In this document: in pieces, positions 27,601 to 50,305 of the stretch | How the letters are laid out: the number at the start of each line of letters is the position of its first letter | How positions within the stretch are numbered: the stretch's first letter is position 1 | Assembly: GCA_945900455.1 (NCBI GenBank) | Contig: CAMDJH010000003.1 | Coordinates: 5,006 to 69,005, forward strand | Direction: 5' to 3' | Source: Akkermansia muciniphila | Lineage (GTDB): Bacteria > Verrucomicrobiota > Verrucomicrobiia > Limisphaerales > UBA9464 | DNA length: 64,000 nucleotides | The notes under the pieces: model-generated | Told to the model about the DNA's origin: nothing | Database searches by the model: none | The model's input: only the letters and a program-made list of their open reading frames with translations | Program-made: the position numbers and the translations under genes

Positions 27601-30600
27601 GGCTGGCGGGATTGATATACTTGTGAGCTCCGTCGACGGCAGACTGTTGGAGGATCGATCCATCATACGGAGTGCCGCTCGTGGCGCAGCCCGGACCCAG
27701 CCAATGTCCTCCGAATAGCCAGTCCTCGCCCGCCCCCCCATCGATGCGGTCGTTGCCCGGACCTCCATATACCGTGTCATTGTTGAATGCGCCGCCGTTT
27801 CCGATGGATTCCTCAGGGATATCCGGCTCTGGTTTCACTTCGAAGCCAATATCATCGACGGTGGTGACGCTGGGAGTGACCTGGAATGCGCCTCCGTTGT
27901 TGCCCGTGGACACCGAGGCGTCCGTGGGCAAATCGGAGTCGGCTTCATCAGCCGTTACAAGGATCGAACCCAGCAAGACGTTTGCAGTCCACTGGCCCGA
28001 ACCGTTGGTCGGTGCAACCCCAAGTACCGAGCCCTCCCGGTCCTGGACCGCCACGGAGATGTTCTTAAGGCGGTACTCGGTGCTACTGTCGAAGAATCCG
28101 TTGCCATTCGCATCGTAGAAAACAAAGCCGGTAATCAGCTGGCGGTCATTATCCTCGATGGTGCCTTTGCCTTCATACCGGGTGATCTCTCCGCCCACTG
28201 CGTTGCTGAGGTGCAACAATAGGTTCTCGGTCAACTCGGCAGTGACATCGTTGACCAGAGAGATCGAAACAGTCTTGGAGGCTCGCTGTGGCGTCGAGTC
28301 GCCATCCGGCACCGGGAGAAAATCCGCCGCCGAAAATGTCACGGTACCCGGCGCGGGCGCCACGAAATCCGATCCGGCATGGGCAGTGCCATTGAGAACA
28401 CTCCAGTCCACGGACACCGTCACACCCGGCGCCAGTCGTACATCATCTGGCAATTCAGCGACAATTTCAAAGGTGATCAGACCACTGGCCACACCCTCAC
28501 TCACCGTCACGTCGCCGACGCTCAGTTTGGGGAGTGGTTGAGCATCAAGAATCCGGAGGACGGCGTTGGGAACCGCTCCCCGTACGGGACCTCCCGTCGG
28601 ATTGAGCAGACTGAGGAGAATCGTTTCGGTTGGTTCAATGTCCTTATCCTGCTGCAGATGTACCGTGAACGTCTTTGCGGTCTCGCCCGACTCAAAATAC
28701 ACCCAGTGGCGGGGCGGCATAGCGCCGTGCTCCCAGATGGCGCCGGTATAGTCGGCACTGGGCGTCGCTGTACCCGCCGTGGTCCAGTAGACCCCGATGG
28801 GATTCGAACTCCCGCCCGCCCGCACCAGGGTGATCTCCAGATCGTCCCCTTCGGTCCCTTGATAAACAACGTTGCTAAACTGGACGTACCACGGCCCGGG
28901 ATCGGGCACCTCATCATCCTGAATCTGTATCACCGCATGGTTGAGATTGGAGTCGTCCGAATCCAACTGACCGTTCGTAGCGGTGAGCAGATTGACAAAG
29001 AAATACTCCCAGACACCTTGCACTGGATCGAACGGCTCGAACCGGGTGTCTCCGTTGATGTTGACCGTGATTGGCTTCGACATTTCAGTCGGCTTGAAGA
29101 CGACGTTCGCGAAAGCGTACTCCGCGTCGGCATCCAGCGGGTTCGGCGCAGAGAGAGTTGCGGTGCCGGGAGAGGTGTTCCAACTCACCACGACCGGTCG
29201 GCCGCTGGCGATCGGTGCATTGGTGACGCCATCGATCAAAGTGAGGGTCAAGCCAACCGGTTTTTTTCCAGCGTGTCCCTCGATCACGGGCAACGCGGGC
29301 CCGGTAATCCTCACAAACGGTGTCGCATCATCGTCGGCAATCCGTCCAATGGCCTCCCCGTCGCCGAGTACCGCGCGGTTGCTCGGTGTGCCCGAGTTGA
29401 TCGCGACACGCATGCTCATTTGCTCGTCGTACTCATCCAGCAAGTCCGGCTTCGGCTGAACAACCAGCGTCAGGCTTGTCTGGTTGGGCAGGAAGGTCAC
29501 CGAACCCGGCAACGGTGTGATGTAGTCGACCCCTTGAGTCGCCGCATCGAATACCAAGACTCCATCGCTGCCCACCACCTGTTCCGAACGATAGTCCACC
29601 GTGATCGAGAATTTGCTGGGCCGCGACAAAGTCACCTCAAAGGTCAGATCCGTGACCTCCGTTACAGGGCCGAAGCCAGGGATTTGGACGGCATTGTTGA
29701 TATTAATCACCGGAGCGTCATCGTCATCAATGATTGTTCCGACGCCGATCGTATGAGCAGGGTCCAGGGCGACCGTGATTGCCGGATGAATTTCCGCTAT
29801 GTTGGGATCGCAGAGCGTGACGTTGAATTGCTCGACATCGCCCTCATCAATGCCGTCCCCATGAATTGCCACTAAGACAGTCTTGGTGATCTCACCCGGC
29901 TTGAACGTCAGTGTCGAATCAACACTGCCGTAATCCAAGATACGGTTCGCCGTCCCATCGGCACTCTTGTAACAAACCGTCACGGTCTGACTGAGCGGGT
30001 TGGTCAGGGTCACCGTGAACATGAGGTTCTGGGTGCCGGTGTCGCCCTCGACAAGGGACGGATTGTCGATGGCGAGCAATGCCGTGGTGCCTCGGTAACC
30101 AACGGCCCACGTATCGGTCGAATCACCCGCATCGACGTGGATCGATCCCGTCTTGCCTGTGGCATCGGCGTCGTTGTCGATCGTGTCATCACTTCCAATA
30201 TCGACTGCCACCACCGCTAATCCTGCGGGTGTCTGGAACTTCAGATAATAATCCCCGCCCTCAAGCCCCACAAACCGGAATGTGCCGTCCGGACCCGTTG
30301 CCGAAGTCCCGATCAAGGTCGTATCCGCTTTATGCAACTCCACAGTCACGGCGGCAACCCCGCGTTCGGTCGGATCACGAACATCATTCCGAATCCCATG
30401 CTCGTCGTTCACATCGAACCAGGCTAGGCCCTTGATGGTTGACCCGGGGAAGGTCGTGGCCTGGCCGCCGTGAGCGTCGTCCGCAAATATTATGTCCGCG
30501 CCATCGCCCCCATCGATGAAGTCGATGCCGTCGGGTTCGACATTCGTAAGCACCCCGCTAACCAGAAGTGTGCCGCCGAATACCTTGTCGTTTCCGCCCG

Positions 30601-33600
30601 CCGCAAACAGGTTGTCGCCGCCCGGGCCTCCCGCGAGAATGTCGTTACCGGAGCCAGAAATCCCGGTGACGTGGGTCAAATCAATGATTGTTCCGTTGTC
30701 GCCCAACAAGACGTCATCGCCCATCCCGCCATCCAGGGTGTCATCGCCATTGCCACCCACCAGTTTGTCACTGCCGGGTCCACCTTCCAGGTGGTCGTCC
30801 CCTTCTTCTCCGTAGAGTTCGTCATCGGCCTCGCCCGTCGTGGCCGGGTCATCGCCGATCAACACATCGGCGCCATCGCCGCCGTAAAGGGTGTCCGGAC
30901 CATCGCCACCATAGAGTTGATCGTTCCCAGAGCCGCCCCGGAGTTCATCCATGCCGGCATTCCCGTATAGTTTATCCCTCCCATCATCGCCGGAGAGCCT
31001 GTCGTTCCGGGCCCCACCCGTGAGAAGATCGTCCCCAGGTCCGCCATGAAACTCGTTGGTGGCGCCCAGGAACATGTCCTTGGCTTCCTCGGCCACGAGG
31101 GTGTCATCGCCCCCACCACCGAAGAACATACTGCCATCACTTTGACCTGCGTATAGGGTATCGTTGCCATCTCCGCCATACGCATCGACCGGGGCCAGCA
31201 CTCCTCGAACATCCAGGACGTCGTCGCCTTTGCCCGCTTTGACGACGATCCGTTTGACTCCGTTATACGTCTGCTTGATGCCGTTGAAACTGACCTCGAC
31301 CGTTTCGGGATCCGCGTTGGTGCCCGCTCCGGACAGATGTTTGACGATGAACGTTTCCGAACCATCGGCGGTGTCACCGACGATTCGATCGGCGGCCCGC
31401 TCGCCCATGTGCAGCGTCAGCAACCCTGGATCCGCGAGTCCAACCGGGACCAGAGGTCCATGGCCATCGACATCGGCCAGCACCGGCTGCGGGCAGTTGA
31501 TATCGAATGTCAGAATCGTGATACGGGCGAATGTCCATTCAAAATCGAGAGAGAAGAACAGCAGGTTGATCTTCAGGTAAGCGGCCAGTTCAACATATAG
31601 TTCCCCATGAATATCGAAAATGCAGCGAATGTCCTGTTTGGCGTTGGCGATAATCTCACTGACGCGAACTTTGCCGTCGTGATCCGGATCATTGAGGTTG
31701 AATTCGATGACGACGAACACTCCGCCCGTGACTCCAAGTTCGATCGGACCGATGCTAAGCGCCGCCCCGGCAAAGATTCCTCCGTGCAGGGTAATCTCAG
31801 GAACGTCGATCCCCTGATCATTGACGTCCTTGACGAAGAAACCGTCGAGGATATCGAGGAAATTCTTCTCCGGACTGCTGATAAATTTTGCAATGCCATA
31901 GGTATCGTACCCAAAGGTGAGATCAATCTTGGCACCGACCTCTCCTCCAAACACCACATAGAGAGGGGGGTAAAGGGGGATGCTCTGGGAGAAGCGCGCG
32001 CTAAATTCGAGCACCGGCATGTGGTACTCGACGAGGGTCACCGGCTTGCCCGTAAAGAGCTTGAACACTTCGCCGATACTGAGGAACGGGAACTTGAATC
32101 CGAGGTCCTCGAGTTTTTGGAGGAAGTTGCGAGCCCCGGCGTGACTCGTCTGAGTGGAAGGCATCGCCGCCTGCGGATTGGTCTCCCCGGCCATGCGCTG
32201 AATCTGGCCGAAAGGGTTGCGCTGCATGTTCAAACCGCCCAGGGGAATGAGAATGGAACCGTTCGATGCCACATTGGTCTCATTGACCAGCGTGATAATC
32301 TTGCCGATCGCTTCGATAAACTTACGCGTGCCGGGTGTTAGTTCGCCGTAAATTTCCGCCAACCGAACCATGTTGATCGGTTCACCGGCCAAATCCGACA
32401 AAATCGGAATGGGAGCCGTGAGCACATCCACCAGGGGTTGGATCGGTCCGGTCACTTTCTTAATCTGCTCAAGGATAGGAGCGATGAACTGGCCGATGAA
32501 CGAGCCGACATCCAGTTGAACGTTATGGAAACCAATATGCAGGTCTCCATCGGAGTGCCCCCCCAGAGTCCACATCCATTCGAGGTCGAATTCCACCAAG
32601 AGTCTCGGGAACTGGGCATCGCCTCCAAAACTCACCACCAAGTCCAGGTGTACCCCCGCTTCCGCTCCCAGCCGTGCCTCGATGAACCGGTCCAGGCTGA
32701 AGCCAGGGCTCCTCATGTCAGCAAAGGTCAGCTTGTTTCCGCTGCCAATCGGATCCTTGAGGTTGACACTGAAAAACCCGCCAAATGAAGAGGAATGTCG
32801 CTCGTGACCCTGCGCATCCACACCATTCGTTTCATCACTGACATCGAGTTGCAGGAAGAACAGGTTTCCTCGGGCGTGCAGACCCGGAATCGTAATCATG
32901 AAGTCGACCTTCAGCTCTTCCGGATCCTCTGTTCGGAAGTAGAACCCGTCACTGGCACTAACGCCAAAGTACAGCTTTAGATCAAATCCAAGTTGGATCT
33001 TAACATTGCCATCCACGCTCAGGCCCAGCCCTGGCACTCCTACATCAAACTGGATGGGATTGGCCGTTGTATCAACGAGGGCCAGCGATTTCTTGATGCG
33101 GATCTTGAAGTCGATCGCGTTGCCGTTGCAGACGATATCGACATCATTGAACTCGGTGATTGGGGTCCCATCCGGCTTCACAATCAGATCCAGTCCCGGT
33201 TTGCCCAGGACATCGAAGATCGCCTTCTTCACCAAACCGATTGGATCGCCGGCCTTGGCGAGTTCACGTCGGATGTCGGCCAGAAGCCCGTTGCGGAATT
33301 GCCCGATGAATCCGCCCACTTCCATGAGTTTGCTACCCACCAGCGGCAGGTTCCGGTTTAAAACCTTGTTGGTCAGGGCGTCCTGGATCGTTCCCAACAG
33401 GGCGTCCAAGCCGTCGAGCAGAACCGGGGTATTGCGGATTGCGGTGCAGGCATCGAAACCGTGGAGCAAACTTCCCAGATCGGGTGTCAGGATCGTGACA
33501 TTTGAATAGACCTTTCCATTGCCCGGCCCGCTATCACCCGTGGGATTCGCCACAACCGCCCAACCTGGAGGCAGGCTCAATGCGATGACCTGAGCTGCAG

Positions 33601-36600
33601 TCGTCTTAGCCGGCCGAACTCGAACCTGAAGATTTCCGCTGCCGTCCAGTGTCGCGGACGGGCTGTCACCCGGATTGGCAACCTCGATAAACTTGACGCT
33701 CTTGCCGGCGGCCGGTCCCGTGAACTTGAGATCGTTCTGCCCAAACGGGAATCGAAGGATGGCTTCGTTGGTTCCCAGATTGTCATGGAGTGTGGCTGGG
33801 ACAAACAAGCCGGGCAGGCTGGGAATGATGACGACGAGGTCATTGTCCGGGAAACCGTCGAGGTTGCCGTCGCTGGTGCTGCCGAGAGGAATTGATTCGA
33901 TCGGTGCGTAAACCGGCAGCACGGCACTCGCGCCGACGTTCAAATTAAAGCCGATGTTGTGGCCGTCGAAGAACGTTTCGCCTCCGCGCAAGTAGTGACG
34001 GCCATCGTGATTACTGTCTTCAAGTTTGACCGCAAACTCCGCGTCCTGGCCAGGCCCGGTGGTGGCTGGATCCCCGTCGCGATCCAGCGTTGCGGTTCCG
34101 TTCTTGATGTAGGCGCCCACGGCCCCGAGACTGGCACGAAAATTGAGATTGGTTCCGCGTAGTGCGGCGCTCAGCACGATGCCAGTACCGGTATTCGGTC
34201 CATCATAATCCGTGTCGTAGAGGAACGGCTCCCAGTGGCAGGGGCTGCTGACATCCAGGCCGAACACGATCTTGAGATCCGCCTTGGCGGTCACCGCCAA
34301 ATCGCCACTGCCGCTCACCGTGACAAGATCCGTCACACCCTGGAGCAGCGAATGTGCCGGTGAGCCGTCGGGTAGAAAGGCGGCGAGATCTCCAAGACTG
34401 AATTGGAAAGGCAAGTTATTTGCATAAGTCGGCGTATAGGCCAACACCATCTTTAAGGCGGTCTGCTGAACGGCCCCACTTCCGTTATTGCCCGGGTCCG
34501 CAGCGCCGTCCAGCTGAGCCGTGAATGGGAGGCTGGCGCCGTGGGCTGAAGCCATGGCATCACGAATCGTTGCGGCCGTCGTATACGTCGCGTTATACCG
34601 GATCTTGAGAGCCTTGTGCGGTGCATCGTACTCCGCCGTCGCGACATTTGCATGCGCCGCGAGCGTTGCATCATCCACAAACAAGACCTCGCTCAATGTA
34701 TCGCCGTTGTTGTCGGCCTGAAAACTGAGCGCGTTGTTGTCACCGCGCGGGTTAAACGTGGCGCTGGCGCGGGTCGAGATATTGCCCGCCGCAATGGCCA
34801 CCACACTGTGTTCGACGGAGAATTCGAGGTTGTTGTCCGAGAGATGGAGCAATTCCTCGATCGTATGTTCCAATTGGTCGAGTTGCTCCCCTTCCCCACG
34901 GCCGACCGCCTGGATCGTCTCGGCAATCTGGCTCGCGAAATCAAGAATATCACCAATGCTTTTATTGATCAGCGGCAACGGTTTATTGAGGAAGTCAAAG
35001 GTGTTGATTTGTCGTAACTGATCACTGAGAGATGCGAGGGTGATGGCGAAGTCGGTGAAACCGAGACATCGGAAATTCATCAGGGCGCCAAAATTGGGAT
35101 ACGTAATGAACACGCCCTGGTCATTGACACCGACCTCGTATGGATTGGGGTTGTATTGCAGATGCCGGAAATCCGGGATCTTGATGGTGATCGCCGGTGT
35201 TCCGGTCAGCAGGCCTGGAATGTTCGGCGTGACCTTGAGATTGGGCAGATTGACATCCAGGTCCGCATGAAAACTCGGATCAAGTTGGACATAGCTTCCA
35301 ATATGGGACAGGTCACCCAGGATCCGGGTAAGATCGATCCGATTCCCCCCGTCCGGGTTGCGAACGTTCAGCAGGACCGAAACATTACCCATCGCCGAAC
35401 CGATCCCGTGGCCCATGCCATCGTGCCCGATATCGACACCAAAGATGGCGAACCGTGCGGTGGCTGCCAGATTGCTGGCCGAAACGGTAAGCATACCTCC
35501 GAAGGACGCGTTATCGAGGAAGATGCCAAGGATTGGGGCCCGCCCGACTCCGCCAGTGAACCCGATCTCAGTGACCATGGGATCGTTCGAGAGAGCCTCG
35601 ATCTCGATTGACGTGACGCCGAACGGAACGACATCCAGGCGGCCGTTCGGGACGAGTGTGTCTTCAAGAGGATCGAGAACCCCGTTACGGTTGGTGTCCT
35701 CGTTGATCGCTTCCAGCACGAGGGCATTTCCGGAGACCACAAAATGAACGACCTCCCGGATGAGATGCCCATGGAATCGGTAACTCGCCGGTGCCAGGAC
35801 CAGGAGGTTATTGAGGTCATCACGCAAATCCGTGAGTTGCGTATTCAGAGCCGAGTGGGGCAGCGTGAACCGGAAGCGGTCGCTGTCGCTCAATTTGATC
35901 GAGAACGTGGAATCCGCCGTGATGCGGCCACTCGACGGCGGTGGAACGACGATCGAGGTAACCAGGCGAGGTGCGGCGCGTTCGTTAAAATCGAACCCGA
36001 GAGTTGCCGCCAGGCTGACCTGTCCATCCAAACCCAAATCACCCGAGGCGCCAAAATTAGCCAGATCTCCCAAACCAATGTTGGTATTATAGGTGAATGA
36101 AGTCGAGGTGGCGAAATGATAACTAAACTCCACGCGGAATGTGAGGCGACGGTTCGGCTGATCGTAATCCAGGTGGATATCGAAGTGCAGCGGACCCTCG
36201 TCATCCGGATCGAGGAGGTCCTCGAGTTTGGCGAACAAGCTTTGCAGGGTGGGAAGCTTGAGGTGTTCGACGCCCGCCTGCCCGCTGCGGAACCCGAGTT
36301 TGGTAAAGATCGGATTGTTGGCGTCGGTGCCGGCGATTCCCAGGCTAAATCCATCAAGGAGTCGAAAAGCCAGGTTGCCGCGCATCACGGTGGCTTGAAC
36401 TTTCTGTGCGGGGTTCCCGGGGAACGCCGCCAGGGCACTGTTGATTTCAGCCGCCAGGTCCGCGATCGAATGCCGACTGCCGTTGACGGCAGGCAGGATG
36501 ATATCCGGCGTAGCGACGTCATTGATGAGGAGACTGAATTTCAAGGGGGCAGAAAATTCGCCCCGCAACACCGCGGGCGTTGGTGACGCTCCGAGATTGC

Positions 36601-39600
36601 CGGTCATGTTCACATCGACCAGATCGCGGTATACTTGGTCGAGGAAGGCGGTGGAAAAATTGAAGGTCGACTTTAGTTTAATCCCATTCCCGAATGGCAA
36701 CTCGATGTTCAGAGCCTCCTGATCTCCGAGACGCGACAGGAAACCGATGAAGCGCCGTAAATCACCCAGGACGGTGGTGCCATTGAACCCGAGGAACCGC
36801 ACGACGATATCCGCACCCACGTCTCCCATGGTGTCGATCCGGAAGCTACTCGCGTCGCGGATATCATCCCAGATCAGGCCGACGTGGAACGTGCCCAGGT
36901 TGAGGAATGGATCCTCCGAATCGAAACCGGCGGCCACGGTGAAATTTCCCACGAGCGTCAGATCGGGCGCGCCGGGATCGTCGTGCACCGTCACGGTGAT
37001 ATAGTCGGCCAGGCGGTCCCAGGCTTCATGTGGGCGCAGGCGACCGGGAGCTTCACCGCCGAGAAGCGGGTCGGCCGCCGTTTCCTGGAGGTCGATCTCG
37101 AAACTCACTCCGGGCGCCAAATGGACCATGCCGCCATCGAGTTTTACGGAAAGCAGACCAAATTGGCCCGCTCCTTCGATTTCTCCGGAGACCACGATGT
37201 CACGAATTACAATCTCCGAGGACGATAGATCGGTTCGCACATAGAATCCGCGTTCGTCGACTCCGAGATCCAGCTCCAGGTCCACCATGACGGATAGATC
37301 GATGTCCGCCTTTAGGCTGAGCGAGCCTCCCAGCAGATCGAGATCGATCATGGGGTGGGCGCTGATCGCCCGGTGAACCCCCACGTGGAACTGGTGGTCG
37401 CTGCCGGCGGTGGTGGCGGTCACATTGCCCGGGATATCATCTAATCCATCCAACAAACTGATCAGTTGCCCGTCGGTCGTAATCGTCACCCCGAGATCGG
37501 AGAACTGGAAACGGCTCGCACCGCCCTCGAGGATGCGTGCAAGTAAGGTTCCTATTTGATCCTCGGAAGATAGTCCCTCTTCCGTTTCTGTTTCCGGACC
37601 GTCGCCCGGGTCACTCAGAGGGGCTCCCAGGCGGAAAGGCACCCCGAAGACCGATCGGCCGAAGGAGCCCCCAAAGGGCCCCACGTCGCGTCCCAGCAAA
37701 CCCCGATCCTGCAACGGCCATGAGCTGTCAGAGAACAAACCCAAGCCCCGCCCGAAAGACCTCAATATATTTGCGAAACTCCCATGGTCTTCGACGGTCT
37801 CGGTGTTCAGCGCGGTCACGCGCTCAAAGCCAACGGTAAGCAACCGTACGGGAGGCAGCGCGGCATTCAAGACAGGCCCCAACGTCGCGCCCGTGAATTC
37901 AACCGTGTCGGCATTCGCGCCCCCATCGTATCGAATGCGCTGGGGGAAGGCGACGTCCCCGTTTTCGCTGTCAATGACCAGTCGATCGTCACCCCCATTC
38001 GAGAAGATCGAGACCGCCTGTACTTGCGACGCCGCCACCCTCAGCAACGTCACTCCACCCACAATGACTTCCAGATCCTCGGGCACCAATACGGAATCGC
38101 CATCGAGTTGCAGGCGAATGGTGTCGGCTCCGGGCCCCGTGTCGATTCGTAGCACCGGCTCTTCGAACGCACCGGCGGCGGCACCGGTCATTTTCCACGC
38201 GCCACGGCCCAGGGTTGCGGCGACCAGCACGTCATCCACGCGGTCGTAGTCGAGATCGGTCACCGTCACATGCGGCAAGCCATTGCCGAACCGCCGCCAA
38301 ACGATATCCGCCGGAGCGGTAGTGGCGAGCGTGGCCGGGTCCTCCACAGGGAGGCGATAGACCCCGTTGCCCGTGCCCGCCAGCACTACCAGCTTGCCAC
38401 CGCGTTCAATGACACTCACGGACTTGTTGCCCTGACTTAATCCAAGCAGGGTCCCGGTTATATCCGTGGCGATCGCGCCCGTGATGGTCTCGGCGGCACC
38501 CACCCCGGTCGTTGTGACCCGGATCATCCAGACATGGCTACCGTCGACCGCGAAGGCGGTGCGCCAATTGTGCGGATCGAGAACGAGATAGCTTACAGAG
38601 GAGACTCCCGCCAGCGCGACCGTGCCAGGAAACGTGCTGCCATCGTCCAGGCTCACGATGACATTATTGCCTCGCGCGACATAGATGACGTTTGGCCTGG
38701 TATCCAGGTTATCCCGACCGCCGTACGCCAGGGCAGACACCTTAGTGGGTAGCAACGCACCGGTGTTCAAAGGAGTGATCGTATCGCCGTGATCCATGCT
38801 CCGATACACCTGGGCTCGTCCCAGCAGAAGCCGGTCCGGCGCCACCTCATTCACGACCATGGGGACATATTCGAATCCAGAACCCCGGGCCAGAGCGGCG
38901 TCGGTGCCCCATCCATCCACGGTCCCGTTGGTAGCATCCAACCCACTGCGAAACAGCGCCGCACCTCCCGCGGTAACCAACGCTTGGCTCCGCAACAGAA
39001 TCGAATCCACCCGCTGCCAGTTGCTTCCGCCGGTATAAGCAGCGTTGCCCACTACGTTGGTGAGCGTGAATTGATTGGGGTTGACGACGGCCACCTTCCA
39101 GGTCCCGGTGGCGGCCGTGTTGCCTCCGCCTAAAAATGCCGGCGCGGTCGTATCCGCGTTGTTCCAGACCGTGACTCTGTCGTCGTTCACCAGTCCATGA
39201 TTATTTGATGTAATCGTGACGGGCACCCCATTTCCGGTCATGTTCGCGACAGGAATCGGGTGAATCACTACAAAGTCACCCCCCCCGCGGTAAGCTCCGT
39301 TGAACGCCAGTCCGTTCACGGTGAAATTATTGACATCCACCACAGTGACACCGAACGCTTGGCCGTTGATCCCGACCAAACCCACCACGCTTGAAAACTG
39401 GGCAAAATCGGTGTTCGCCAAGCCGTGTGCCACCGAGTTCACCCGCACCGCACCCGCCACATTGGTGATATTGGTGATCGTGTGACTGACCGGCCGAATC
39501 TCGTTATTGAGGTTATCGAACGTTCGCAGGGATAAGAATCCCAGGTTGTTCGACATGATATACCGCAGTGAATTACCCCCGGCGTAATCCACCGCCACAA

Positions 39601-42394
39601 AATTGCCGTCACCGCCGGTCAGGCTAGTCCAAACCAAGCCTCCCGGCGTGAGTTGGCTGATCAGGCCATTGTCCTGGGTTCCCGCAAAGATCGTATCGGT
39701 AAATCGATCATAGGCGGCCGACCGTGCCAACTCGGTGATGCTGAGGCCGCTTCCAATCCATTGCCAACCGGGGCTGAGGTTCCCAATCCGGGGATTCGCC
39801 GACCGATATAATCCCCCGTCGGACCCGACGATCAAGTCGGTGCCAGCGCTATTAAAGCGAATCGTCCGTACGTCACCGTGTGGCCCGGTCGTGTATGGGT
39901 CGGCAGCCGCAGCGTTCGTAGTGGTCACCTGGGTCCAACCGGACTGGATCGAACCGTCGCCATTGGTGTCCTCAAGGGGATCGAGAACTCCGTTTAGATT
40001 TCGATCTTCCGTATCCCACCGAAAGATCGCGGCGGTATACGGCGCAGTGCTGTTGATCGCACCGGCCACGAACAGCGTGCTCGGATTGGTCGGATCCGTT
40101 ACGATCGCCGAATGGATGTCCCCCTGGCCGGTAGGGTTGGCGATCGGTGGGGCTGCACCCACCGAGGTCCAGATCCCGCCGATGTTGGTGGACTTGAAAA
40201 CCCCTGCCAACTGGTTGTCGGGACCGACAATGGAGGCATAAACCGGGTTCGAACCACTCGCAACGGCCGTGGCACCGATCGCCAGCAAAATTCGGTTTGA
40301 GACCTTGATTCCCTCGCCCACCTCGTCCGTAACGGTGTCTTGATCGTCATCGGTCATGTTACTATCGAGCGGAAGAACAATCCCGCTCGTAATACGGGTC
40401 CAATGAATGTTGGCTACGGTTGCCTCAGTTCCGTTGCTCGTGACATAGACCCCCTTCTGAAGGGCTGGAATCTTGGAATTGTCCGTGCGTTGGAACGGTC
40501 CCGACAGGGAGACATACCACCGCCCGGGTGCGCCCGGGTCTTCGACAATGTCATTCACGGTTCCCTCCGGCAGTGGATGCACTCCTCCGAGAGCAGAGAT
40601 TCGTACCCAGGTGCCGTCGACGCCCCGACTGGTGCTCCGGTAGAGGCCGCCACGCCCCGGGGTTGCGCCCGAGGCGGGAGTCACTTCAAACGTCGACGCA
40701 TAGACCACATCCTTGGTGGCTACGTTACGCGAAGGAACGATCGCGGTGATCCGCAGGCCGGAGAACTCGCCACGGCTCGTAGCTTGCCATGTCGCGCCGC
40801 CATCCAATGAACGGAAAAGACCGGCATTGATTCCCGTCTGAGCGCTGCTGGTGAAGGACCCCGTGCCCGCATAGAGAACCAATTGATTGTCTGCCGTGAC
40901 TCCCGTTACAGGCGTCCCGTCCACCGCAAATGGACTCATCGCCAAGGCACCGATTCCCAGCGTTGGGAAACGGTCGGTCACGGGACCACCGGTGGCGGTA
41001 ACCAGCAGAGACCACGTCGGGTTTACGGTATTGAAGTCGGTGCTCTTCCAGATGCCGCCATTCACACTCCCGAGAAACGCGATGTTCGGCTTGGCCGGGT
41101 GAACGGCCAGGGCTTGAACGGCGCCGTCGGTGGGATTGGCGTTCGCTGGCGGAGCGTTCGAAGGCAGCAATTCATTCTGATTATTAATGATGCTGTTCGG
41201 ACCTTGCGACTGCCAGGTGGCGGGATTGAAGTAGACGTACGGTGTCTGCGGAAGATAACGGAGGAGCAGATCGCGCCCATCATTCGAAAGATCGACGACG
41301 AAGGCATGGCCAGCCGGCCTGGCGTTCAAGAACACCCCAGGGACAGAATCCAGGCTGAACTTGGTTCGGTCAAAACCCGTGATACCAGCGGTAGTATGGA
41401 CAATTCGCCAGATATAGGTCTGGGAATTATCGAAGTTCGCAGCGACCCCAAGCGTTCCCGGGGACGACAACGTATTGAGATGGATCGCAAAGGGACTGAC
41501 CGCAGTGGCCTGGATGTCGAGGCTTCCCGTGACGTTGATGATGTCCCAATCCGTGCCTTCAAGACCCGTCGCACTCTTCATGTCCCAGGCATACTCTTCG
41601 GTGCTGCTCCAAATCTCGTTCGAGGCGATCGCCTCGATCCCAGGCCCGTGAGGAATGGAAGAGACCGTCTCCAGGGAAGCATGACCTCGACGCGAACTTT
41701 CCAACAGCACGTCCAAAGCAGATGGCGGCCCGTTGGCGCTCCGCAATGTTTCCAACAACTGAGTGGTGATGGAACTTCCCTCCGGTTTGGCGGGCACGAC
41801 CGAATCGAATGCGGCCGGCAGCAGTGGCGAAACTTCGGGTCCCGGCGACGCGAACTCCGCTGCGGAAGTTTCAACGGTCGTCGGCGCACATCCTTTTGGC
41901 TCGGGTTGATTCGGCGCTCCCGCGACTGGCGACGGGACGGAAAACGGGATGCTAGGAGCCAAATCCTCGAGGGAATCACAATGCCCGAGAAGATCCTTCG
42001 CGGAGCGCGAAGCCTCGGCACTCTCGATGGCCGCTTGTTCGCTCCGTTGCAGTGCCGTCGCCGCTTCCGCGAGCGGATGCTGGACGTGCTCTTCGACAAC
42101 GGCGACCTGGCTGTTGGATTGACTGTGGGCGGCCGCAGGCGCGAGCGAACCCAACCCTTCGCCGGAAAGCAAAATCCGAGGCTCAAGAGCCTCCAAATCA
42201 AATGGAGCGTCTTTACGCACAGAGAGCAAAAAGCAACCGAACTGAAAATCAGCCGCCTCGGAAGACAGAGTTCCCGCTTTAACCCGCGCGCCGCGTCGCG
42301 TCGGAACCACCCTCTCCAACAATCCAATTCCCAGGTGCGGGTGAAACTTTTTCGGCGGTTCATATTTAGAACCATAGCCATACGCAAAAATCAA
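21620..42394 (-). CDS. 6,924-aa giant secreted protein: LEPR-XLL-type N-terminus, BNR/Asp-box beta-propeller, unassigned ~2,100-aa core, RTX blocks, SdrD-B-like and Calx-beta arrays
   Basis: One uninterrupted ORF of 20,775 nt. 'LEALEPRILLS' lies at 42164-42196. Asp-box motifs include 'GGIWKSTD' and 'SLDGGATWQ'. GGxGxD nonapeptides are numerous (e.g. 'GGSGNDQLYGGDGPDTLYGGDGADVLIGD'). Calx-beta-like units read 'LAIDNPSLVEGDTG...'. An SdrD-B-like unit reads 'IKGLAWFDVNDEHGIRND...'. The 5' end is uncertain: the ORF opens at TTG 42394, there is no ATG in the first ~270 codons, and alternative GTG starts lie at 42310 and 42220. Confidence 0.85.
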   Translation of the reverse strand: MIFAYGYGSKYEPPKKFHPHLGIGLLERVVPTRRGARVKAGTLSSEAADFQFGCFLLSVRKDAPFDLEALEPRILLSGEGLGSLAPAAAHSQSNSQVAVVEEHVQHPLAEAATALQRSEQAAIESAEASRSAKDLLGHCDSLEDLAPSIPFSVPSPVAGAPNQPEPKGCAPTTVETSAAEFASPGPEVSPLLPAAFDSVVPAKPEGSSITTQLLETLRSANGPPSALDVLLESSRRGHASLETVSSIPHGPGIEAIASNEIWSSTEEYAWDMKSATGLEGTDWDIINVTGSLDIQATAVSPFAIHLNTLSSPGTLGVAANFDNSQTYIWRIVHTTAGITGFDRTKFSLDSVPGVFLNARPAGHAFVVDLSNDGRDLLLRYLPQTPYVYFNPATWQSQGPNSIINNQNELLPSNAPPANANPTDGAVQALAVHPAKPNIAFLGSVNGGIWKSTDFNTVNPTWSLLVTATGGPVTDRFPTLGIGALAMSPFAVDGTPVTGVTADNQLVLYAGTGSFTSSAQTGINAGLFRSLDGGATWQATSRGEFSGLRITAIVPSRNVATKDVVYASTFEVTPASGATPGRGGLYRSTSRGVDGTWVRISALGGVHPLPEGTVNDIVEDPGAPGRWYVSLSGPFQRTDNSKIPALQKGVYVTSNGTEATVANIHWTRITSGIVLPLDSNMTDDDQDTVTDEVGEGIKVSNRILLAIGATAVASGSNPVYASIVGPDNQLAGVFKSTNIGGIWTSVGAAPPIANPTGQGDIHSAIVTDPTNPSTLFVAGAINSTAPYTAAIFRWDTEDRNLNGVLDPLEDTNGDGSIQSGWTQVTTTNAAAADPYTTGPHGDVRTIRFNSAGTDLIVGSDGGLYRSANPRIGNLSPGWQWIGSGLSITELARSAAYDRFTDTIFAGTQDNGLISQLTPGGLVWTSLTGGDGNFVAVDYAGGNSLRYIMSNNLGFLSLRTFDNLNNEIRPVSHTITNITNVAGAVRVNSVAHGLANTDFAQFSSVVGLVGINGQAFGVTVVDVNNFTVNGLAFNGAYRGGGDFVVIHPIPVANMTGNGVPVTITSNNHGLVNDDRVTVWNNADTTAPAFLGGGNTAATGTWKVAVVNPNQFTLTNVVGNAAYTGGSNWQRVDSILLRSQALVTAGGAALFRSGLDATNGTVDGWGTDAALARGSGFEYVPMVVNEVAPDRLLLGRAQVYRSMDHGDTITPLNTGALLPTKVSALAYGGRDNLDTRPNVIYVARGNNVIVSLDDGSTFPGTVALAGVSSVSYLVLDPHNWRTAFAVDGSHVWMIRVTTTGVGAAETITGAIATDITGTLLGLSQGNKSVSVIERGGKLVVLAGTGNGVYRLPVEDPATLATTAPADIVWRRFGNGLPHVTVTDLDYDRVDDVLVAATLGRGAWKMTGAAAGAFEEPVLRIDTGPGADTIRLQLDGDSVLVPEDLEVIVGGVTLLRVAASQVQAVSIFSNGGDDRLVIDSENGDVAFPQRIRYDGGANADTVEFTGATLGPVLNAALPPVRLLTVGFERVTALNTETVEDHGSFANILRSFGRGLGLFSDSSWPLQDRGLLGRDVGPFGGSFGRSVFGVPFRLGAPLSDPGDGPETETEEGLSSEDQIGTLLARILEGGASRFQFSDLGVTITTDGQLISLLDGLDDIPGNVTATTAGSDHQFHVGVHRAISAHPMIDLDLLGGSLSLKADIDLSVMVDLELDLGVDERGFYVRTDLSSSEIVIRDIVVSGEIEGAGQFGLLSVKLDGGMVHLAPGVSFEIDLQETAADPLLGGEAPGRLRPHEAWDRLADYITVTVHDDPGAPDLTLVGNFTVAAGFDSEDPFLNLGTFHVGLIWDDIRDASSFRIDTMGDVGADIVVRFLGFNGTTVLGDLRRFIGFLSRLGDQEALNIELPFGNGIKLKSTFNFSTAFLDQVYRDLVDVNMTGNLGASPTPAVLRGEFSAPLKFSLLINDVATPDIILPAVNGSRHSIADLAAEINSALAAFPGNPAQKVQATVMRGNLAFRLLDGFSLGIAGTDANNPIFTKLGFRSGQAGVEHLKLPTLQSLFAKLEDLLDPDDEGPLHFDIHLDYDQPNRRLTFRVEFSYHFATSTSFTYNTNIGLGDLANFGASGDLGLDGQVSLAATLGFDFNERAAPRLVTSIVVPPPSSGRITADSTFSIKLSDSDRFRFTLPHSALNTQLTDLRDDLNNLLVLAPASYRFHGHLIREVVHFVVSGNALVLEAINEDTNRNGVLDPLEDTLVPNGRLDVVPFGVTSIEIEALSNDPMVTEIGFTGGVGRAPILGIFLDNASFGGMLTVSASNLAATARFAIFGVDIGHDGMGHGIGSAMGNVSVLLNVRNPDGGNRIDLTRILGDLSHIGSYVQLDPSFHADLDVNLPNLKVTPNIPGLLTGTPAITIKIPDFRHLQYNPNPYEVGVNDQGVFITYPNFGALMNFRCLGFTDFAITLASLSDQLRQINTFDFLNKPLPLINKSIGDILDFASQIAETIQAVGRGEGEQLDQLEHTIEELLHLSDNNLEFSVEHSVVAIAAGNISTRASATFNPRGDNNALSFQADNNGDTLSEVLFVDDATLAAHANVATAEYDAPHKALKIRYNATYTTAATIRDAMASAHGASLPFTAQLDGAADPGNNGSGAVQQTALKMVLAYTPTYANNLPFQFSLGDLAAFLPDGSPAHSLLQGVTDLVTVSGSGDLAVTAKADLKIVFGLDVSSPCHWEPFLYDTDYDGPNTGTGIVLSAALRGTNLNFRASLGAVGAYIKNGTATLDRDGDPATTGPGQDAEFAVKLEDSNHDGRHYLRGGETFFDGHNIGFNLNVGASAVLPVYAPIESIPLGSTSDGNLDGFPDNDLVVIIPSLPGLFVPATLHDNLGTNEAILRFPFGQNDLKFTGPAAGKSVKFIEVANPGDSPSATLDGSGNLQVRVRPAKTTAAQVIALSLPPGWAVVANPTGDSGPGNGKVYSNVTILTPDLGSLLHGFDACTAIRNTPVLLDGLDALLGTIQDALTNKVLNRNLPLVGSKLMEVGGFIGQFRNGLLADIRRELAKAGDPIGLVKKAIFDVLGKPGLDLIVKPDGTPITEFNDVDIVCNGNAIDFKIRIKKSLALVDTTANPIQFDVGVPGLGLSVDGNVKIQLGFDLKLYFGVSASDGFYFRTEDPEELKVDFMITIPGLHARGNLFFLQLDVSDETNGVDAQGHERHSSSFGGFFSVNLKDPIGSGNKLTFADMRSPGFSLDRFIEARLGAEAGVHLDLVVSFGGDAQFPRLLVEFDLEWMWTLGGHSDGDLHIGFHNVQLDVGSFIGQFIAPILEQIKKVTGPIQPLVDVLTAPIPILSDLAGEPINMVRLAEIYGELTPGTRKFIEAIGKIITLVNETNVASNGSILIPLGGLNMQRNPFGQIQRMAGETNPQAAMPSTQTSHAGARNFLQKLEDLGFKFPFLSIGEVFKLFTGKPVTLVEYHMPVLEFSARFSQSIPLYPPLYVVFGGEVGAKIDLTFGYDTYGIAKFISSPEKNFLDILDGFFVKDVNDQGIDVPEITLHGGIFAGAALSIGPIELGVTGGVFVVIEFNLNDPDHDGKVRVSEIIANAKQDIRCIFDIHGELYVELAAYLKINLLFFSLDFEWTFARITILTFDINCPQPVLADVDGHGPLVPVGLADPGLLTLHMGERAADRIVGDTADGSETFIVKHLSGAGTNADPETVEVSFNGIKQTYNGVKRIVVKAGKGDDVLDVRGVLAPVDAYGGDGNDTLYAGQSDGSMFFGGGGDDTLVAEEAKDMFLGATNEFHGGPGDDLLTGGARNDRLSGDDGRDKLYGNAGMDELRGGSGNDQLYGGDGPDTLYGGDGADVLIGDDPATTGEADDELYGEEGDDHLEGGPGSDKLVGGNGDDTLDGGMGDDVLLGDNGTIIDLTHVTGISGSGNDILAGGPGGDNLFAAGGNDKVFGGTLLVSGVLTNVEPDGIDFIDGGDGADIIFADDAHGGQATTFPGSTIKGLAWFDVNDEHGIRNDVRDPTERGVAAVTVELHKADTTLIGTSATGPDGTFRFVGLEGGDYYLKFQTPAGLAVVAVDIGSDDTIDNDADATGKTGSIHVDAGDSTDTWAVGYRGTTALLAIDNPSLVEGDTGTQNLMFTVTLTNPLSQTVTVCYKSADGTANRILDYGSVDSTLTFKPGEITKTVLVAIHGDGIDEGDVEQFNVTLCDPNIAEIHPAITVALDPAHTIGVGTIIDDDDAPVININNAVQIPGFGPVTEVTDLTFEVTLSRPSKFSITVDYRSEQVVGSDGVLVFDAATQGVDYITPLPGSVTFLPNQTSLTLVVQPKPDLLDEYDEQMSMRVAINSGTPSNRAVLGDGEAIGRIADDDATPFVRITGPALPVIEGHAGKKPVGLTLTLIDGVTNAPIASGRPVVVSWNTSPGTATLSAPNPLDADAEYAFANVVFKPTEMSKPITVNINGDTRFEPFDPVQGVWEYFFVNLLTATNGQLDSDDSNLNHAVIQIQDDEVPDPGPWYVQFSNVVYQGTEGDDLEITLVRAGGSSNPIGVYWTTAGTATPSADYTGAIWEHGAMPPRHWVYFESGETAKTFTVHLQQDKDIEPTETILLSLLNPTGGPVRGAVPNAVLRILDAQPLPKLSVGDVTVSEGVASGLITFEIVAELPDDVRLAPGVTVSVDWSVLNGTAHAGSDFVAPAPGTVTFSAADFLPVPDGDSTPQRASKTVSISLVNDVTAELTENLLLHLSNAVGGEITRYEGKGTIEDNDRQLITGFVFYDANGNGFFDSSTEYRLKNISVAVQDREGSVLGVAPTNGSGQWTANVLLGSILVTADEADSDLPTDASVSTGNNGGAFQVTPSVTTVDDIGFEVKPEPDIPEESIGNGGAFNNDTVYGGPGNDRIDGGAGEDWLFGGHWLGPGCATSGTPYDGSILQQSAVDGAHKYINPASLPPTGTLGDRVWNDVNSNGTQDAGELGVKDMQVNLYDQYWTLVGTAWTDTHGNYKFEKLAACSYRVQFLPPTGFRLTARDVGIDTADSDADPATGLTSLLPVAGGSLNIDLDAGLVALPAPGPEPWNLSFDHVIYSVRESDGAATITVLHTDNRRQGVGDYYTVNGTASDGVHTPPALPADYVPVKGTARFDLHELSQSFVVPVIQDTIAEGYETVFLQLRNPTGGDVHGNLPQAVLLIFDNPAPDDDVIQGSDGNDVILGDYGYYDPAAAEKFVLLGGMGNDILSGGISGAGDPGDTSQLDKAKFDLIFGEGGNDRLEGGPGNDRLVGGSENDTYVFDGDHDASVNVIDEMGSPLGGTDAIDLSTTSGRSARIDLGSAVLQAVTSRFDGVSDVPVLQVRFPINVIENATGGRRDDVLTGNDLDNRLAGGDGNDTLEGKNGKDELIGGKGSDSYLFNADGSLGHDIVNEIDSAATDEDVDLLDFRTSMTVGVAVNLSLTAAQPVNANLLLTLTDAGGIEILYGTNKNDVLTGNARDNVLWGFVGDDSLDGAAGYDVLAEIRGGNWMLSTGILKLLDTGEVDTFTPTFEEISLTGDSNDNSLDASSFGGLVRLDGGAGNDTLIGGAGTNTFTGGPGVDTITGGGGTNILTEQRDGDFKLTPLSLQITPFGGVAETDTTSSISEAHLTGGDHDNTLDASAFNGTVTLDGAAGNDQLFGTTHNDTLIGGAGDDLLVGAAGDDTYPFDTDTTLGSDTIVELAGGGTDTLDFSSTDTFGVTLTLGENIFRSDGTLLPFTHTQVLNPNLSLTLPPELIENLKGTQSDDVLVGNALVNRIEGNFGNDAITGGLGSDQLFGGENTPILAPPFMIVYADQIVEQRDTDITLASLGLSLAIINFAGAETEIVVGFEGALLAGGLGDNHINAGFFFYPASLFGEEGNDVLTGGFDGDRLIGGAGDDTLAGGLRGDTYIFDTDTPLGTDTVIEVGGPFSGEDTLDFSLTTTRAVTVRLGLAIPQFINSNLNLVLTSATAVEDVLGSALNDRLYGNAAGNVLVGNAGNDRLEGFDGDDTLAGGDGNDRYAFNPDFALGSDRILESVGGGGTDTLDFSSTAASLTVDLTLGHLQIVVPGRLSLHLLSCDGIEDVISGAGNDILLGNSLDNHLTGGPGNDTLSGRRGDDTYIFNTSAALGSDILVETADVEGGIDTLDFRGSTNAVSLDLSNSLNQNVNINLNLTLTSLIYLPVFGNLAFENVFGGLGADILIGNSLDNLLDGGSGGDLLSAGAGNDMLLGNAGNDFLFGGIGEDRLEGGSGNDFISGGSGNDLYLFDTDTALGLDTLSEPLTGGNDTLDFSASQTLGVQLDLSRGLAQVLNPNLTLTLGLGNRFENIVGTSRDDVLRGNKLDNILAGGPGDDTYRFDVDDVHVYGDTYGVDRIEERAGDGTDTLDFLETGTTGVVVDLGLASPQVVAFNVAPAPGPTFPAPPRPALTLILAAGDVVENVIGASLDDTLIGNVLDNRLTGGPGVDKLIGGDGVDTLVEHADADFVLKNASLRIGSEVDSLDEIERAELTGGPGPNVLDASNYSLGPVTLDGGLGNDTLRGGASGLDRVFASRDADMSVTNAQLTIGAETDTLVSIERATLIGGPSANILLASGFVLGPVILVGGDGDDTLKGGSKDDQITGGAGSDIINGGTGDDVLIEVIDGNIILSNTQLFTPSGVDTFTNLVRVEISGGPNNNFFTAAGVATVNVLFRGEGGNDILVGTDRDDILEGGDGSDILVGRKGDDVYMFRGAWGTDTLIELAGEGVDRLDFSFASSGMTIALGDSTSASDSNGNQVLPAANVEQIRASGFDDQVSVTPSMTTALRVEAGDANADELIYVAQNAVTVQTPTLFSSVGFQPVTYVGFEVIHVVHVGLGSTLLVPAAGRDLAPLVLRPDLHLISPMTWTRAIAAPPTVAVLWDSSAVLSVGPQPLHSFDSQQQLRLTPSPLEGLNPPNGRTS
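21628..21634 (-). promoter_or_regulatory. Shine-Dalgarno-like GGGAGGA for the 1,843-aa gene, embedded in the 3' end of the giant gene
   Basis: The minus strand reads ...GGGAGGAcctcATGA. The SD lies 4 nt before the ATG (21621-21623), and that ATG overlaps the giant gene's TGA stop (21620-22). Confidence 0.5.
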
Positions 42395-48400: not shown

Positions 48401-49547
48401 GCCCTACGATCTGCTCTGGTTGAATGAGCTCCAGTCCGACAACGCCAGCGGCATCATTGACAACTTTGGTGAACGCGAGCCGTGGATTGAACTCTACAAC
48501 GCCGGTACCAACACACTACCGCTCGAGGGCTATTTTCTCGCCGACAATTACACCACGAACCTGACCCAGTGGCCGTTTCCCCCGGGAAGCCGCATCGCGC
48601 CCGGTGAATTCAAAATTGTGTGGGCCGACGGCGAACCCGGTCAAACGGGCGGGACGAATCTGCACACGAACTTCCGTTTGAATCGCACGACCGGCGCAGT
48701 CGCCCTGGTGCGGATCGTCAAGAGTCAACCCCAGATCACCGACTACCTGACGTACCCGAACCTTGGCGCAAATCTGTCTTATGGCGCGGTCCCGGACGGT
48801 CAGCCGTTCCACCGGCAAGTATTGAATTTCGTCACGCCACGCACGAAAAATGTCACACCGACGGTTGCCCTTTTTATTAACGAATGGCTGGCGGGCAATA
48901 CGAATACGCTAAGGGATCCCGCGGACTCGGATCCCGAGGATTGGTTCGAACTCTACAACGCTGGATCCTCCCCCGTGGACCTGACGGGTTATTACCTGAC
49001 CGATACCCTGGCGAACCCGACGAAGTTTAGAATTCCGAACGGCTATGTCATGCCGCCCGGCGGCTTTCTGCTCATTTGGGCTGACGAGGAACCAGAACAA
49101 AACCATAGCAACCGAATCGATCTGCACGTCAATTTCCGACTCGCGAGCGGAGGTGAAGTGATTGGTCTATTCTCCCCCACCGGCGGCGCGGTTGATCAAA
49201 TCGCGTTCGGACCGCAGACCAACGACGTCAGTCAGGGTCGCTATTCCGACGGGGCGGCACCGATCTATTTCATGACGACCCCAACGCCGAGGGGACCCAA
49301 CACTCTTGCCGGCGGCAATACCGCCCCGCAGTTAACCGGCATCAGCGTGACCGCGGATGGAATGGTCGCACTCACGATGCAAACGATCGTCGGCAAAACC
49401 TACCGGTTGGAATACAAGCACAGCCTGAACAATCCAGGCTGGATCCCCATCGCACCGGACCGGTTGGCTCTTTCCGACAGTCTGACCCTCCATGACGACA
49501 TCGGTGCAAGCACTCAGCGCTTTTATCGCCTTGTCATCCTGGAGTAA
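42429..49547 (+). CDS. 2,372-aa secreted PA14 / Ig-like / ConA-like / 6x lamin-tail-domain (LTD) / CotH-domain protein
   Basis: ATG followed by signal peptide '...[19 protein letters not shown]'. PA14-like '[28 protein letters not shown]...[10 protein letters not shown]' at about 42640-43010. LTD openings are '[10 protein letters not shown]', 'IMINEFLAH', '[10 protein letters not shown]', 'LVLNEILYN', 'LWLNELQSD' and 'LFINEWLAG', each followed by 'F(I/V/W)ELYN'. CotH core '[20 protein letters not shown]...[17 protein letters not shown]' at about 46350-47560. Confidence 0.85.
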
Positions 49548-49591: not shown

Positions 49592-50305
49592 ATGAATCCG
49601 CACGCACGCACCACCTCCACCTCCGCCTTCACCCTGATTGAATTGTTGGTTGTCATTGCCATCATCGCCATTTTGGCCGGCATGATCTTGCCGGCGCTCA
49701 CTCGAGCTAAAGCCAAGGCAAAACAAACCCAATGTGCGAACAACCAAAGGCAGCAAAGCCTCGCGTACATAATGTATACCGCTGACTACAGCGATTATTA
49801 TCCGATGCAACGTGATTGGCCGGCAGTGGGTGGTAAAAATGGTACGTACACCATTTTTGTGGCGGCGACCAACCGGCCGCTAAATGCGTATGCCCCAGCC
49901 CTGAGCACGTTTAACTGCCCCAGTGATCGCGGAGATGCCATTTTCGCGATATCGAACTGCTTTGGTGTTTACGGAAATAGTTATCTGACCGAATGGGGGC
50001 TGGACGCTTGGCGGGTCAAACACGTCACCGGAGATCCAACCGCGCCCGCCGGCAGTTCCCTGGCAACCCCCATCCGGGGCAGCGAGGTCGCCAAAGGTCC
50101 AACCACAAAAATCATTCAAGGGGACTGGGTCTGGCATCCCAATCGCGGCGTAACCGATAACCGCAGTGTATGGCATAACTACCGCGGAAAGAATCTCACA
50201 ATGATGTTATTCGGTGATGGCCATGTTCAGGCGTACCGTTTTCCGGATGAATTCAAGAACTGGAATTCCACACCCCTTCCGGACGTGAATTTCCTGTGGT
50301 GGTAA
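49592..50305 (+). CDS. Pseudopilin-like protein (prepilin-type N-terminal domain plus degenerate H-X9-DG C-terminus)
   Basis: '[12 protein letters not shown]|[24 protein letters not shown]', with C-terminal '[12 protein letters not shown]'. It starts 44 nt downstream of the CotH-protein stop on the same strand. Confidence 0.85.

Follow-up and report, generated by a model that had tools for sequence, protein, structure and literature searches.

What kind of structure occupies the middle of a giant bacterial protein whose recognisable domains all lie to either side? The question is raised by a 64,000-nucleotide stretch of the assembly GCA_945900455.1, filed as Akkermansia muciniphila (GTDB lineage Verrucomicrobiota, UBA9464; contig CAMDJH010000003.1, positions 5,006 to 69,005 of the forward strand), which we call the window. 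Its minus strand carries an open reading frame (ORF) of 6,924 amino acids (aa), the giant, whose residues are numbered here from the first TTG. Between an N-terminal propeller region and a C-terminal part rich in repeats-in-toxin (RTX) nonapeptides lies a core of about 2,100 residues. Profile comparisons show that this core is made of five diverged, ancient copies of one unit, a helical segment of ~90 aa (H) followed by a long-hairpin module of ~200 aa (B). The last two copies form a module, D, that adjoins the RTX block in a very large protein family. As to function, we give about even chances to the core being a conserved, non-enzymatic stalk, stabilised by Ca2+ and differing in length among family members, that connects to the RTX block of a giant secreted protein.

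A core without a recognisable family

Searches with the core gave zero Pfam or NCBIfam matches at E≤0.1, and a phmmer comparison with all PDB sequences returned nothing at E≤10. This agrees with the original prediction, made from the letters of the DNA, which had recognised no family here. As it had also stated, the core holds neither GGxGxD repeats nor Asp-boxes, the first GGxGxD lying at residue 3740 and the only strict Asp-box of the giant at residue 529. The scarcity of cysteine is real (0.2%, 5 of 2,100 residues) but equals the value of the whole protein, so it is not distinctive of the core. No confident match to a known adhesin stalk or toxin translocation domain was obtained in Pfam, NCBIfam, PDB or Foldseek (PDB and BFVD). 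Nor is the core low-complexity filler, since its sequence entropy is that of the propeller region; it is also conserved and colinear in many homologues.

The flanks are better understood. On the N-terminal side, Pfam yields a sub-threshold E1_FCCH match within the propeller region, and the string GGDDRLVIDS stands at residues 1467-1476. On the C-terminal side, Pfam and NCBIfam recognise 20 RTX stretches (PF00353, E 6.5e-109, all beyond residue 3740), three SdrD_B, three Calx-beta and a CarboxypepD_reg. The segment around GGDDRLVIDS (residues 1417-1497, window ~37904-38146) weakly resembles the lead-in to the first RTX block (residues 3718-3790; 33% over 80 aa, with E 9e-5 as a single uncorrected comparison), so that the core seems bracketed by beta-roll-like segments.

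Five diverged copies of one large unit

When the entire core was compared with itself by BLAST, only the identity match was found. Tiles of the core compared with the masked rest, on the other hand, gave matches at E 1e-4 to 8e-3, against ≥0.1 in three shuffles. The long-range recurrence of short motifs, from which an ancient duplication of very large units rather than a tandem array had been proposed, is thus above chance, both in these tile comparisons and in five segment pairs at 93-98% in the orthologue-only alignments described below. The hidden Markov model (HMM) of module D agrees with this: its positions 104-250 match residues 1631-1775 at 28.8 bits, and four other, partial matches are weaker. 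Aligning jackhmmer tiles with hhalign gave many core segment pairs at 95-99.9%. This result is partly circular, as the tiles recruit paralogous copies, and the circularity was removed by taking the profiles from 30 orthologues aligned colinearly. With these orthologue-only profiles, B of unit A aligns with B of unit D1 at 95.4% over 178 columns (residues 1655-1848 and 3082-3285), H of unit B with H of unit C at 97.0%, B of unit C with B of unit D1 at 93.5%, and the first piece of B in unit B with B of unit C at 92.9%. The HMM and profile-profile comparisons together therefore uphold the duplication of large units (Table 1).

The units differ in what has been placed into them. Four small alpha/beta inserts of two types (X1 and X1', X2 and X2') lie within or between units B and C, and they too are paralogous pairs. 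Units D1 and D2 have no inserts and make up module D, the best-conserved part of the core, directly ahead of the first RTX block. A B-module HMM matches six pieces of the giant, two of which are the halves of a single B module split by an insert. The H segments carry an 'LPL(I/V)(G/N)' motif and the B modules the recurring strand-turn 'xLxLxFGxD' that had been spotted in the original prediction. Indeed, all seven strings quoted there are present at the expected positions, and five of them (VDLELDLGVDERGFYVRTD at 1704-1722, LAATLGFDFNERAAP at 2128-2142, LKIVFGLDVSSP at 2707-2718 in unit C, GFDLKLYFGVSASDGFYFRTEDPE at 3136-3159 and AKIDLTFGYDTYG at 3488-3500) mark one strand-turn position across the five B modules. 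The same pairing follows from the offsets between aligned profiles (1704 to 3136, 2128 to 2707, 3136 to 3488).

One further repetition was noticed within the giant. An identical 10-residue, Ca-loop-like string, NGVLDPLEDT, occurs twice, 1,400 residues apart, in the propeller (NLNGVLDPLEDTNGDGSIQ) and in insert X1' (NRNGVLDPLEDT), within residues 800-816 and 2236-2247.

Table 1. Features of the giant and its core in window coordinates
Feature	Residues and content	Window	Strand	Basis or remark
Giant ORF		21620..42394	-	ORF listing; NF012209 (LEPR-8K) at residues 67-87
Core	1531-3630	31505..37804	-	no Pfam, NCBIfam or PDB sequence match
Unit A	H 1539-1630, B 1639-1849; no inserts; holds VDLELDLGVDERGFYVRTD	36848..37780	-	D HMM, hhalign
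Unit B	H 1850-1931, B 2034-2143 + 2259-2413; inserts X1, X1'	35156..36847	-	hhalign, B HMM, AlphaFold
Insert X1	1934-2033; small alpha/beta, conserved G..F..DL..N	36296..36595	-	X1 vs X1' 98.0% (orthologue-only hhalign)
Insert X1'	2145-2258; X1 paralogue, EF-hand-like loop DTNRNGVLDPLE at 2233-2244	35621..35962	-	
Unit C	H 2425-2516, insert X2 2517-2612, B 2619-2846	33857..35122	-	hhalign, B HMM
Insert X2'	2847-2938; paralogue of X2 (2517-2612)	33581..33856	-	orthologue-only hhalign 98.2%, E 4.6e-14
Module D	2961-3700; D1 (H 2963-3070, B 3071-3290) + D2 (H 3294-3450, B 3455-3660)	31295..33514	-	
Hydrophobic stretch	3536-3567; predicted two-strand hairpin (3534-3548, 3551-3567)	31694..31789	-	
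EF-hand-like 12-residue loop	3569-3580; DPDHDGKVRVSE	31655..31690	-	alignment A1 + orthologue count
First GGxGxD nonapeptide of first RTX block	3740	31160..31177	-	marks D-RTX junction

Module D adjoins the RTX repeats across a large family

A word-index search with the 2,100-aa core found 14 homologues, in Planctomycetota, Verrucomicrobiales, Terrabacter (Actinomycetota) and the cyanobacterium Myxacorys. Residues ~2965-3700 are common to all of them except P0001, which is truncated and ends at the equivalent of residue 2321. An alignment of this module D of ~730 aa (A1) found just 10 further proteins in a second word-index search. When 1.84 billion representative proteins were searched with the D profile, 4,868 clusters (at 50% identity) matched at E≤1e-3 and 2,552 at E≤1e-30, most of them proteins of 2,000-8,000 aa. 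The family spans Verrucomicrobiota, Planctomycetota, Cyanobacteria, Myxococcota and Actinomycetota. An LExRxLL-like motif is found in the first 300 residues of 64 of 169 members. Given the number of clusters, the members without LEPR-XLL and the presence of Cyanobacteria, Actinomycetota and Myxococcota, the suggestion that the region might be restricted to LEPR-XLL giants does not hold.

The position of D relative to the repeats is fixed. GGxGxD repeats follow D in 148 of the 169 sequences examined, the first of them at a median distance of 42 residues (interquartile range 28-52), and RTX upstream of D occurs in only 23. Module D is the obligate N-terminal partner of the first RTX block. Upstream, conservation is graded: among 168 proteins, residues 2640-2840 are colinear in ~84, residues 2280-2520 in 70-80, residues 1880-2280 in 30-50 and residues 1401-1880 in ~10, with 29-54% identity over 1,100 aa ahead of D. 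The orthologue P0016 is 88-91% identical, and in a single-protein scan of species-representative genomes the closest relatives of D were all from Verrucomicrobiota metagenome-assembled genomes (MAGs), at 45-66% identity.

By the B-module HMM, a protein holds between 1 and 13 B-like modules, most often 5, and minimal members consist of D and RTX. The cyanobacterial P0014 opens with D, from residue 2, and has no N-terminal signal peptide. The heads vary too, from a propeller in this giant to an LCAT-type lipase (P0006), a Peptidase_M10 (P0008) or no identifiable domain. In A1, the positions of D that never vary hold Gly, Pro, Leu, Asp and Lys, and no pattern of the catalytic type is seen among them.

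No Pfam family other than RTX is common to the 24 homologues that have precomputed matches, so D has no model in the newer Pfam release or in NCBIfam 20.0. PF26766 (Choice_anch_L) and PF27198 (a weak FlaEY_3rd match) were considered as models of the core and rejected, each being found in a single protein. Looking up the clusters gave generic names only, such as 'Ca2+-binding RTX toxin-like protein'.

Two observations concern the surroundings of relatives. In the Myxacorys MAG (locus L001, 9113-9937 and 10001-14677), a separate 274-aa VWA7_N gene lies 63 nt upstream of P0014, which may represent a split head-plus-core arrangement; downstream of P0014 come a Choice_anch_L/cadherin gene and then an SLH-OprB porin gene. 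Around P0008 (L004, 5835-18651), the neighbouring called genes overlap one another at their ends and contain RTX repeats (386, 1021 and 805 aa); they may be one much longer gene broken by frameshifts or assembly errors.

Predicted structure and the readings it suggests

AlphaFold2 models were obtained for module D (2961-3700; 13 sequences; predicted local distance difference test, pLDDT, 66.5; predicted template-modelling score, pTM, 0.45) and for residues 1861-2960 (alignment of 19 sequences; pLDDT 74.9, pTM 0.49). In both models helical bundles alternate with very long hairpins, whose predicted strands run over 14-19 residues in D and up to 21-28 upstream. Most of the long strands are strongly amphipathic, with one aliphatic or aromatic face and an opposite face rich in Asp, Glu, Lys and Arg. 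The beta-rich, alternately hydrophobic character ascribed to the core is borne out by both models. The hydrophobic stretch said to close the core is also present, but it is predicted to be a buried, conserved, Gly-rich beta-hairpin rather than a membrane helix, and this hairpin lies in the best-predicted part of the D model. A transmembrane helix at this place was considered and rejected: hydropathy is borderline (1.81), two Glu and several conserved Gly residues occur in the stretch, and its model is a hairpin with pLDDT ~85.

Foldseek searches covered PDB and BFVD, and neither model had a PDB match at E≤1e-3. The weak PDB matches of the D model are outer-membrane barrels and gasdermin/MACPF pores. 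As the top ones are SprA, LptD, FhaC, TonB-dependent receptors, TamA and Sam50, and the strands are amphipathic, D could be an outer-membrane beta-barrel and serve to anchor or export the giant, in the manner of autotransporters or two-partner secretion. We consider this very improbable, mainly because D is present in the monoderm actinobacterium Terrabacter (P0010) and because the giant has no N-terminal signal peptide for periplasmic entry. Furthermore, D lies mid-chain with thousands of residues on either side and includes helical segments of 80-100 aa and EF-hand-like loops, AlphaFold left the barrel unclosed at its pTM of 0.45, and the matches do not exceed TM-score (TM) 0.18 or probability 0.28. 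Two other sets of matches were set aside. Levivirus maturation proteins in BFVD (TM≤0.14) were taken as secondary-structure mimicry, and a lipid-transfer reading with an AsmA/TamB-like groove was dropped, its only matches being MTP and lipovitellin (E 0.035-0.08, TM≤0.13).

A second possibility is that D, perhaps with other B modules, carries amphipathic hairpins that enter a target membrane and refold there as a pore or translocation channel, working with RTX in the way of the hydrophobic domain of RTX cytolysins; a membrane-inserting D could then deliver or present the variable N-terminal heads. In HlyA and CyaA the pore-forming and acylated segment sits N-terminal to RTX, and D is fixed at just this place. 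The hairpins are strongly amphipathic over 14-28 residues, the weak Foldseek matches are mostly gasdermin, MACPF, leukocidin and aerolysin-type pores, and some relatives have enzyme-like heads (LCAT-type lipase, Peptidase_M10). The fixed D-RTX junction and the long hairpins keep this reading alive, yet we hold it to be rather improbable. Every pore-former match of either model, on models of pLDDT 66-75, stays at probability ≤0.47 and TM≤0.15, and the leukocidin/aerolysin-type matches of the upstream model at probability ≤0.16. The polar strand faces are charge-rich, and conserved putative Ca-binding loops break the hairpins. The window holds neither an HlyC-type acyltransferase nor a type I secretion operon near the giant. 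The carriers are free-living, aquatic members of Verrucomicrobiota, Planctomycetota and Cyanobacteria, and a B copy number of 1-13 suits a spacer better than a defined pore. The NCBIfam RTX_toxin profile (NF033943) matches the giant only at profile positions ~679-800, in the RTX part, with 341 bits against a cut-off of 1000. About as doubtful is a bolder proposal, in which H-B would be a new fold and D with RTX a widespread Ca2+-triggered machine, its hairpins inserting into a target membrane or surface and its heads serving as cargo or warheads. If true, environmental bacteria would possess a delivery platform of a new sort, with a reach comparable to that of RTX cytolysins or MARTX toxins.

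The upstream model gave the only high-probability matches of all, to FliD D2-D3 (5h5w; probability 0.96, TMt 0.34-0.37, E 4e-3) and to a phage sheath protein (8fvg; probability 1.00, 141 columns, E 1.5e-2). Given the size and alpha/beta content of the small X inserts, these matches most likely stem from them, X1 being a candidate, with the aligned query residues unreported. The likeness is weak in any case (TMt 0.18-0.37 overall) and would concern at most the four inserts, ~400 of 2,100 residues. A profile of X1 searched against PDB gave two FliD chains at E 0.2, which is not significant, and 18 X1 sequences matched no flagellar Pfam family at E≤1. The X1 inserts have in common a 'DL..(I/L/F)N' motif that resembles the IN motif of flagellin.

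A third possibility is that the H-B units are self-association surfaces and the polymer an S-layer-like lattice, a sheath or a fibre on the cell surface. There is precedent in RTX-containing, type I-secreted S-layer proteins such as RsaA of Caulobacter and those of cyanobacteria. The one-sided hydrophobic sheets require a partner surface, at least one insert type has some likeness to outer domains of FliD, which forms polymers, and of a phage sheath protein, and the family is abundant in Cyanobacteria and PVC (Planctomycetes-Verrucomicrobia-Chlamydiae) phyla. Nonetheless, oligomerisation is without a supporting sign, the giant is far larger than known S-layer subunits and has many adhesin-type domains (Calx-beta, SdrD_B, propeller), and the FliD/sheath likeness is local and weak (E 4e-3 to 1.5e-2). 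We regard a lattice or fibre as unlikely, at a level comparable to membrane insertion.

The H-B fold itself is possibly new. That the core holds an undescribed fold, as had been anticipated, remains plausible, but it is unproven because AlphaFold confidence is only moderate, and the inserts are weakly FliD D2-D3-like.

Putative calcium loops and a proposed stalk of variable length

Five [DN]x[DN]x[DN]G loops are found in the core, and four of them are kept in 70-92% of orthologues. Two conserved loops are complete 12-residue loops of the EF-hand type, DTNRNGVLDPLE at 2233 and DPDHDGKVRVSE at 3569, and unit C holds conserved DxNxDG loops at 2793 and 2842. The loop at 3569-3580, directly after the hydrophobic hairpin, is nearly invariant across the family as LNDPxxDGKVR, and fits [DN]x[DN]x[DN]G in 25 of 29 orthologues. 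Loops of the DxDxDG type bind Ca2+, and by their motif those of the core probably do so as well.

That the core is a stalk is the reading we prefer, and it starts from what the comparisons show: how the unit is built, that it is conserved in a very large family, that the D-RTX junction is fixed, that homologues differ in their number of units, and that loops of the DxDxDG type are kept. The giant would be exported by a C-terminal type I signal, which is probable because an N-terminal signal peptide is missing. After export, the units would fold around bound Ca2+, like the neighbouring RTX rolls, into a stiff, extended stalk, longer or shorter according to how many units it has. Such a stalk would keep the variable N-terminal head (a sortilin-type propeller here, a lipase-like or metalloprotease domain in relatives) apart from the RTX/Calx-beta/SdrD-B part, with module D acting as a junction or folding platform on the RTX block. 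The giant might then be shown on the cell or released from it.

Several points weigh against a stalk. The pTM is only 0.45-0.49, too low to fix the arrangement of the units. A mere spacer does not account for the strict coupling of D to RTX, and long amphipathic hairpins are also used by pore-forming proteins. No gene for an ABC transporter, a membrane fusion protein or a TolC-like protein of type I secretion was found among the 20 neighbouring ORFs of the window, or beside the homologues P0014, P0010 and P0008; such genes can be unlinked, and the giant may use type I secretion all the same.

Comparison with known giant RTX proteins

In overall design the giant resembles the RTX adhesins LapA of Pseudomonas, MpIBP of Marinomonas and FrhA of Vibrio, which are likewise giant and Cys-poor, without an N-terminal signal peptide and with RTX at the C-terminus. 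They too are Ca2+-dependent surface proteins with a long modular middle of variable copy number between two ends, and the C-terminal RTX nonapeptides that define them are present here. In these adhesins the extender works as a modular region stiffened by calcium (PMC7493085). Their extender consists of tandem Ig-like beta-sandwiches of ~100 aa with a Pfam match, whereas the five diverged units of the giant measure ~350-570 aa and have none: no Big, Cadherin or other Ig-type Pfam family was found in residues 1531-3630 at E≤0.1. The head of the giant is N-terminal, unlike the ligand-binding domains of RTX adhesins, which adjoin RTX, and neither a retention module nor LapG/LapD nor type I secretion genes were found in the window. 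Since the Ig-like extender, the retention module and the linked secretion genes were all sought without being found, the giant may work in an extender-like manner while standing outside the RTX adhesin class.

The RTX cytolysins (HlyA, CyaA, RtxA of Kingella) share with the giant a non-repeat module of several hundred residues directly N-terminal to RTX and functionally tied to it. Theirs is a hydrophobic, alpha-helical module with acylation sites after it, which depend on an HlyC-type acyltransferase, whereas D is mostly beta. Features of MARTX toxins (glycine-rich A/B repeats, cysteine protease, effector domains) have no Pfam or NCBIfam match anywhere in the giant. With the LEPR-XLL giants of PVC phyla, the giant shares the N-terminal motif above the curated cut-off (NF012209, 23.9 bits against 17) and thus belongs among them. 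That model covers only the N-terminal motif of ~24 residues and not the core, and the core family also exists without the motif.

The giant belongs, then, within a known kind of giant RTX surface protein, and its core module is widespread and unannotated in the libraries searched. Such proteins are common in aquatic Verrucomicrobiota, Planctomycetota and Cyanobacteria and are mostly unannotated along their length. Module D, as defined here, occurs in at least 4,868 clusters, adjoins RTX, has a clear internal unit structure, and has no model in the Pfam and NCBIfam releases consulted and no relative in PDB. Its description as a family would bring annotation to thousands of 'Ca2+-binding RTX toxin-like' or hypothetical proteins. 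A structure of D could reveal if an obligatory partner fold goes with the RTX beta-roll, and if the proteins themselves serve as adhesins, build lattices or act on membranes.

The gene and its neighbourhood

The real start of the giant is probably the GTG at residue 59 (window 42220), giving MRKDAPFDLEALEPRILLS and a protein of ~6,866 aa. This start is preferred because the orthologue P0016 begins MRKEAQFDLEVLEPRILLS, matching that GTG (window 42218-42394). It places the LEPR-XLL motif 9 residues from the likely true N-terminus, where no signal peptide is found.

The stop of the giant overlaps the start of the next gene (ATGA, 21620-21623), which encodes 1,843 aa (window 16092-21623, minus strand) with IgGFc_binding, five GEVED stretches and a HYR domain. 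At locus L005, a 71% identical gene follows the orthologous giant with the identical 4-nt overlap, and the giant and the IgGFc_binding/GEVED/HYR gene look like a conserved two-gene operon.

On the other side, a divergent gene of 2,372 aa (window 42429-49547, plus strand) encodes six Lamin Tail Domain stretches, a CotH kinase-like domain and a PA14/GLEYA-like N-terminal domain, and is the third very large surface-type protein in a row. Beyond it (window 49592-54748) is a cluster typical of PVC phyla, in which all five small genes encode the prokaryotic N-terminal methylation motif and two also DUF1559. Taken with the close relatives of D, which are all from Verrucomicrobiota, this cluster suggests that the window derives from a Verrucomicrobiota genome and not from a planctomycete. 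Further off, at window 10706-11743 on the minus strand, an IS630-like transposase (DDE_3 and helix-turn-helix) is located between the genes for a major facilitator superfamily transporter and a Fapy-DNA glycosylase.

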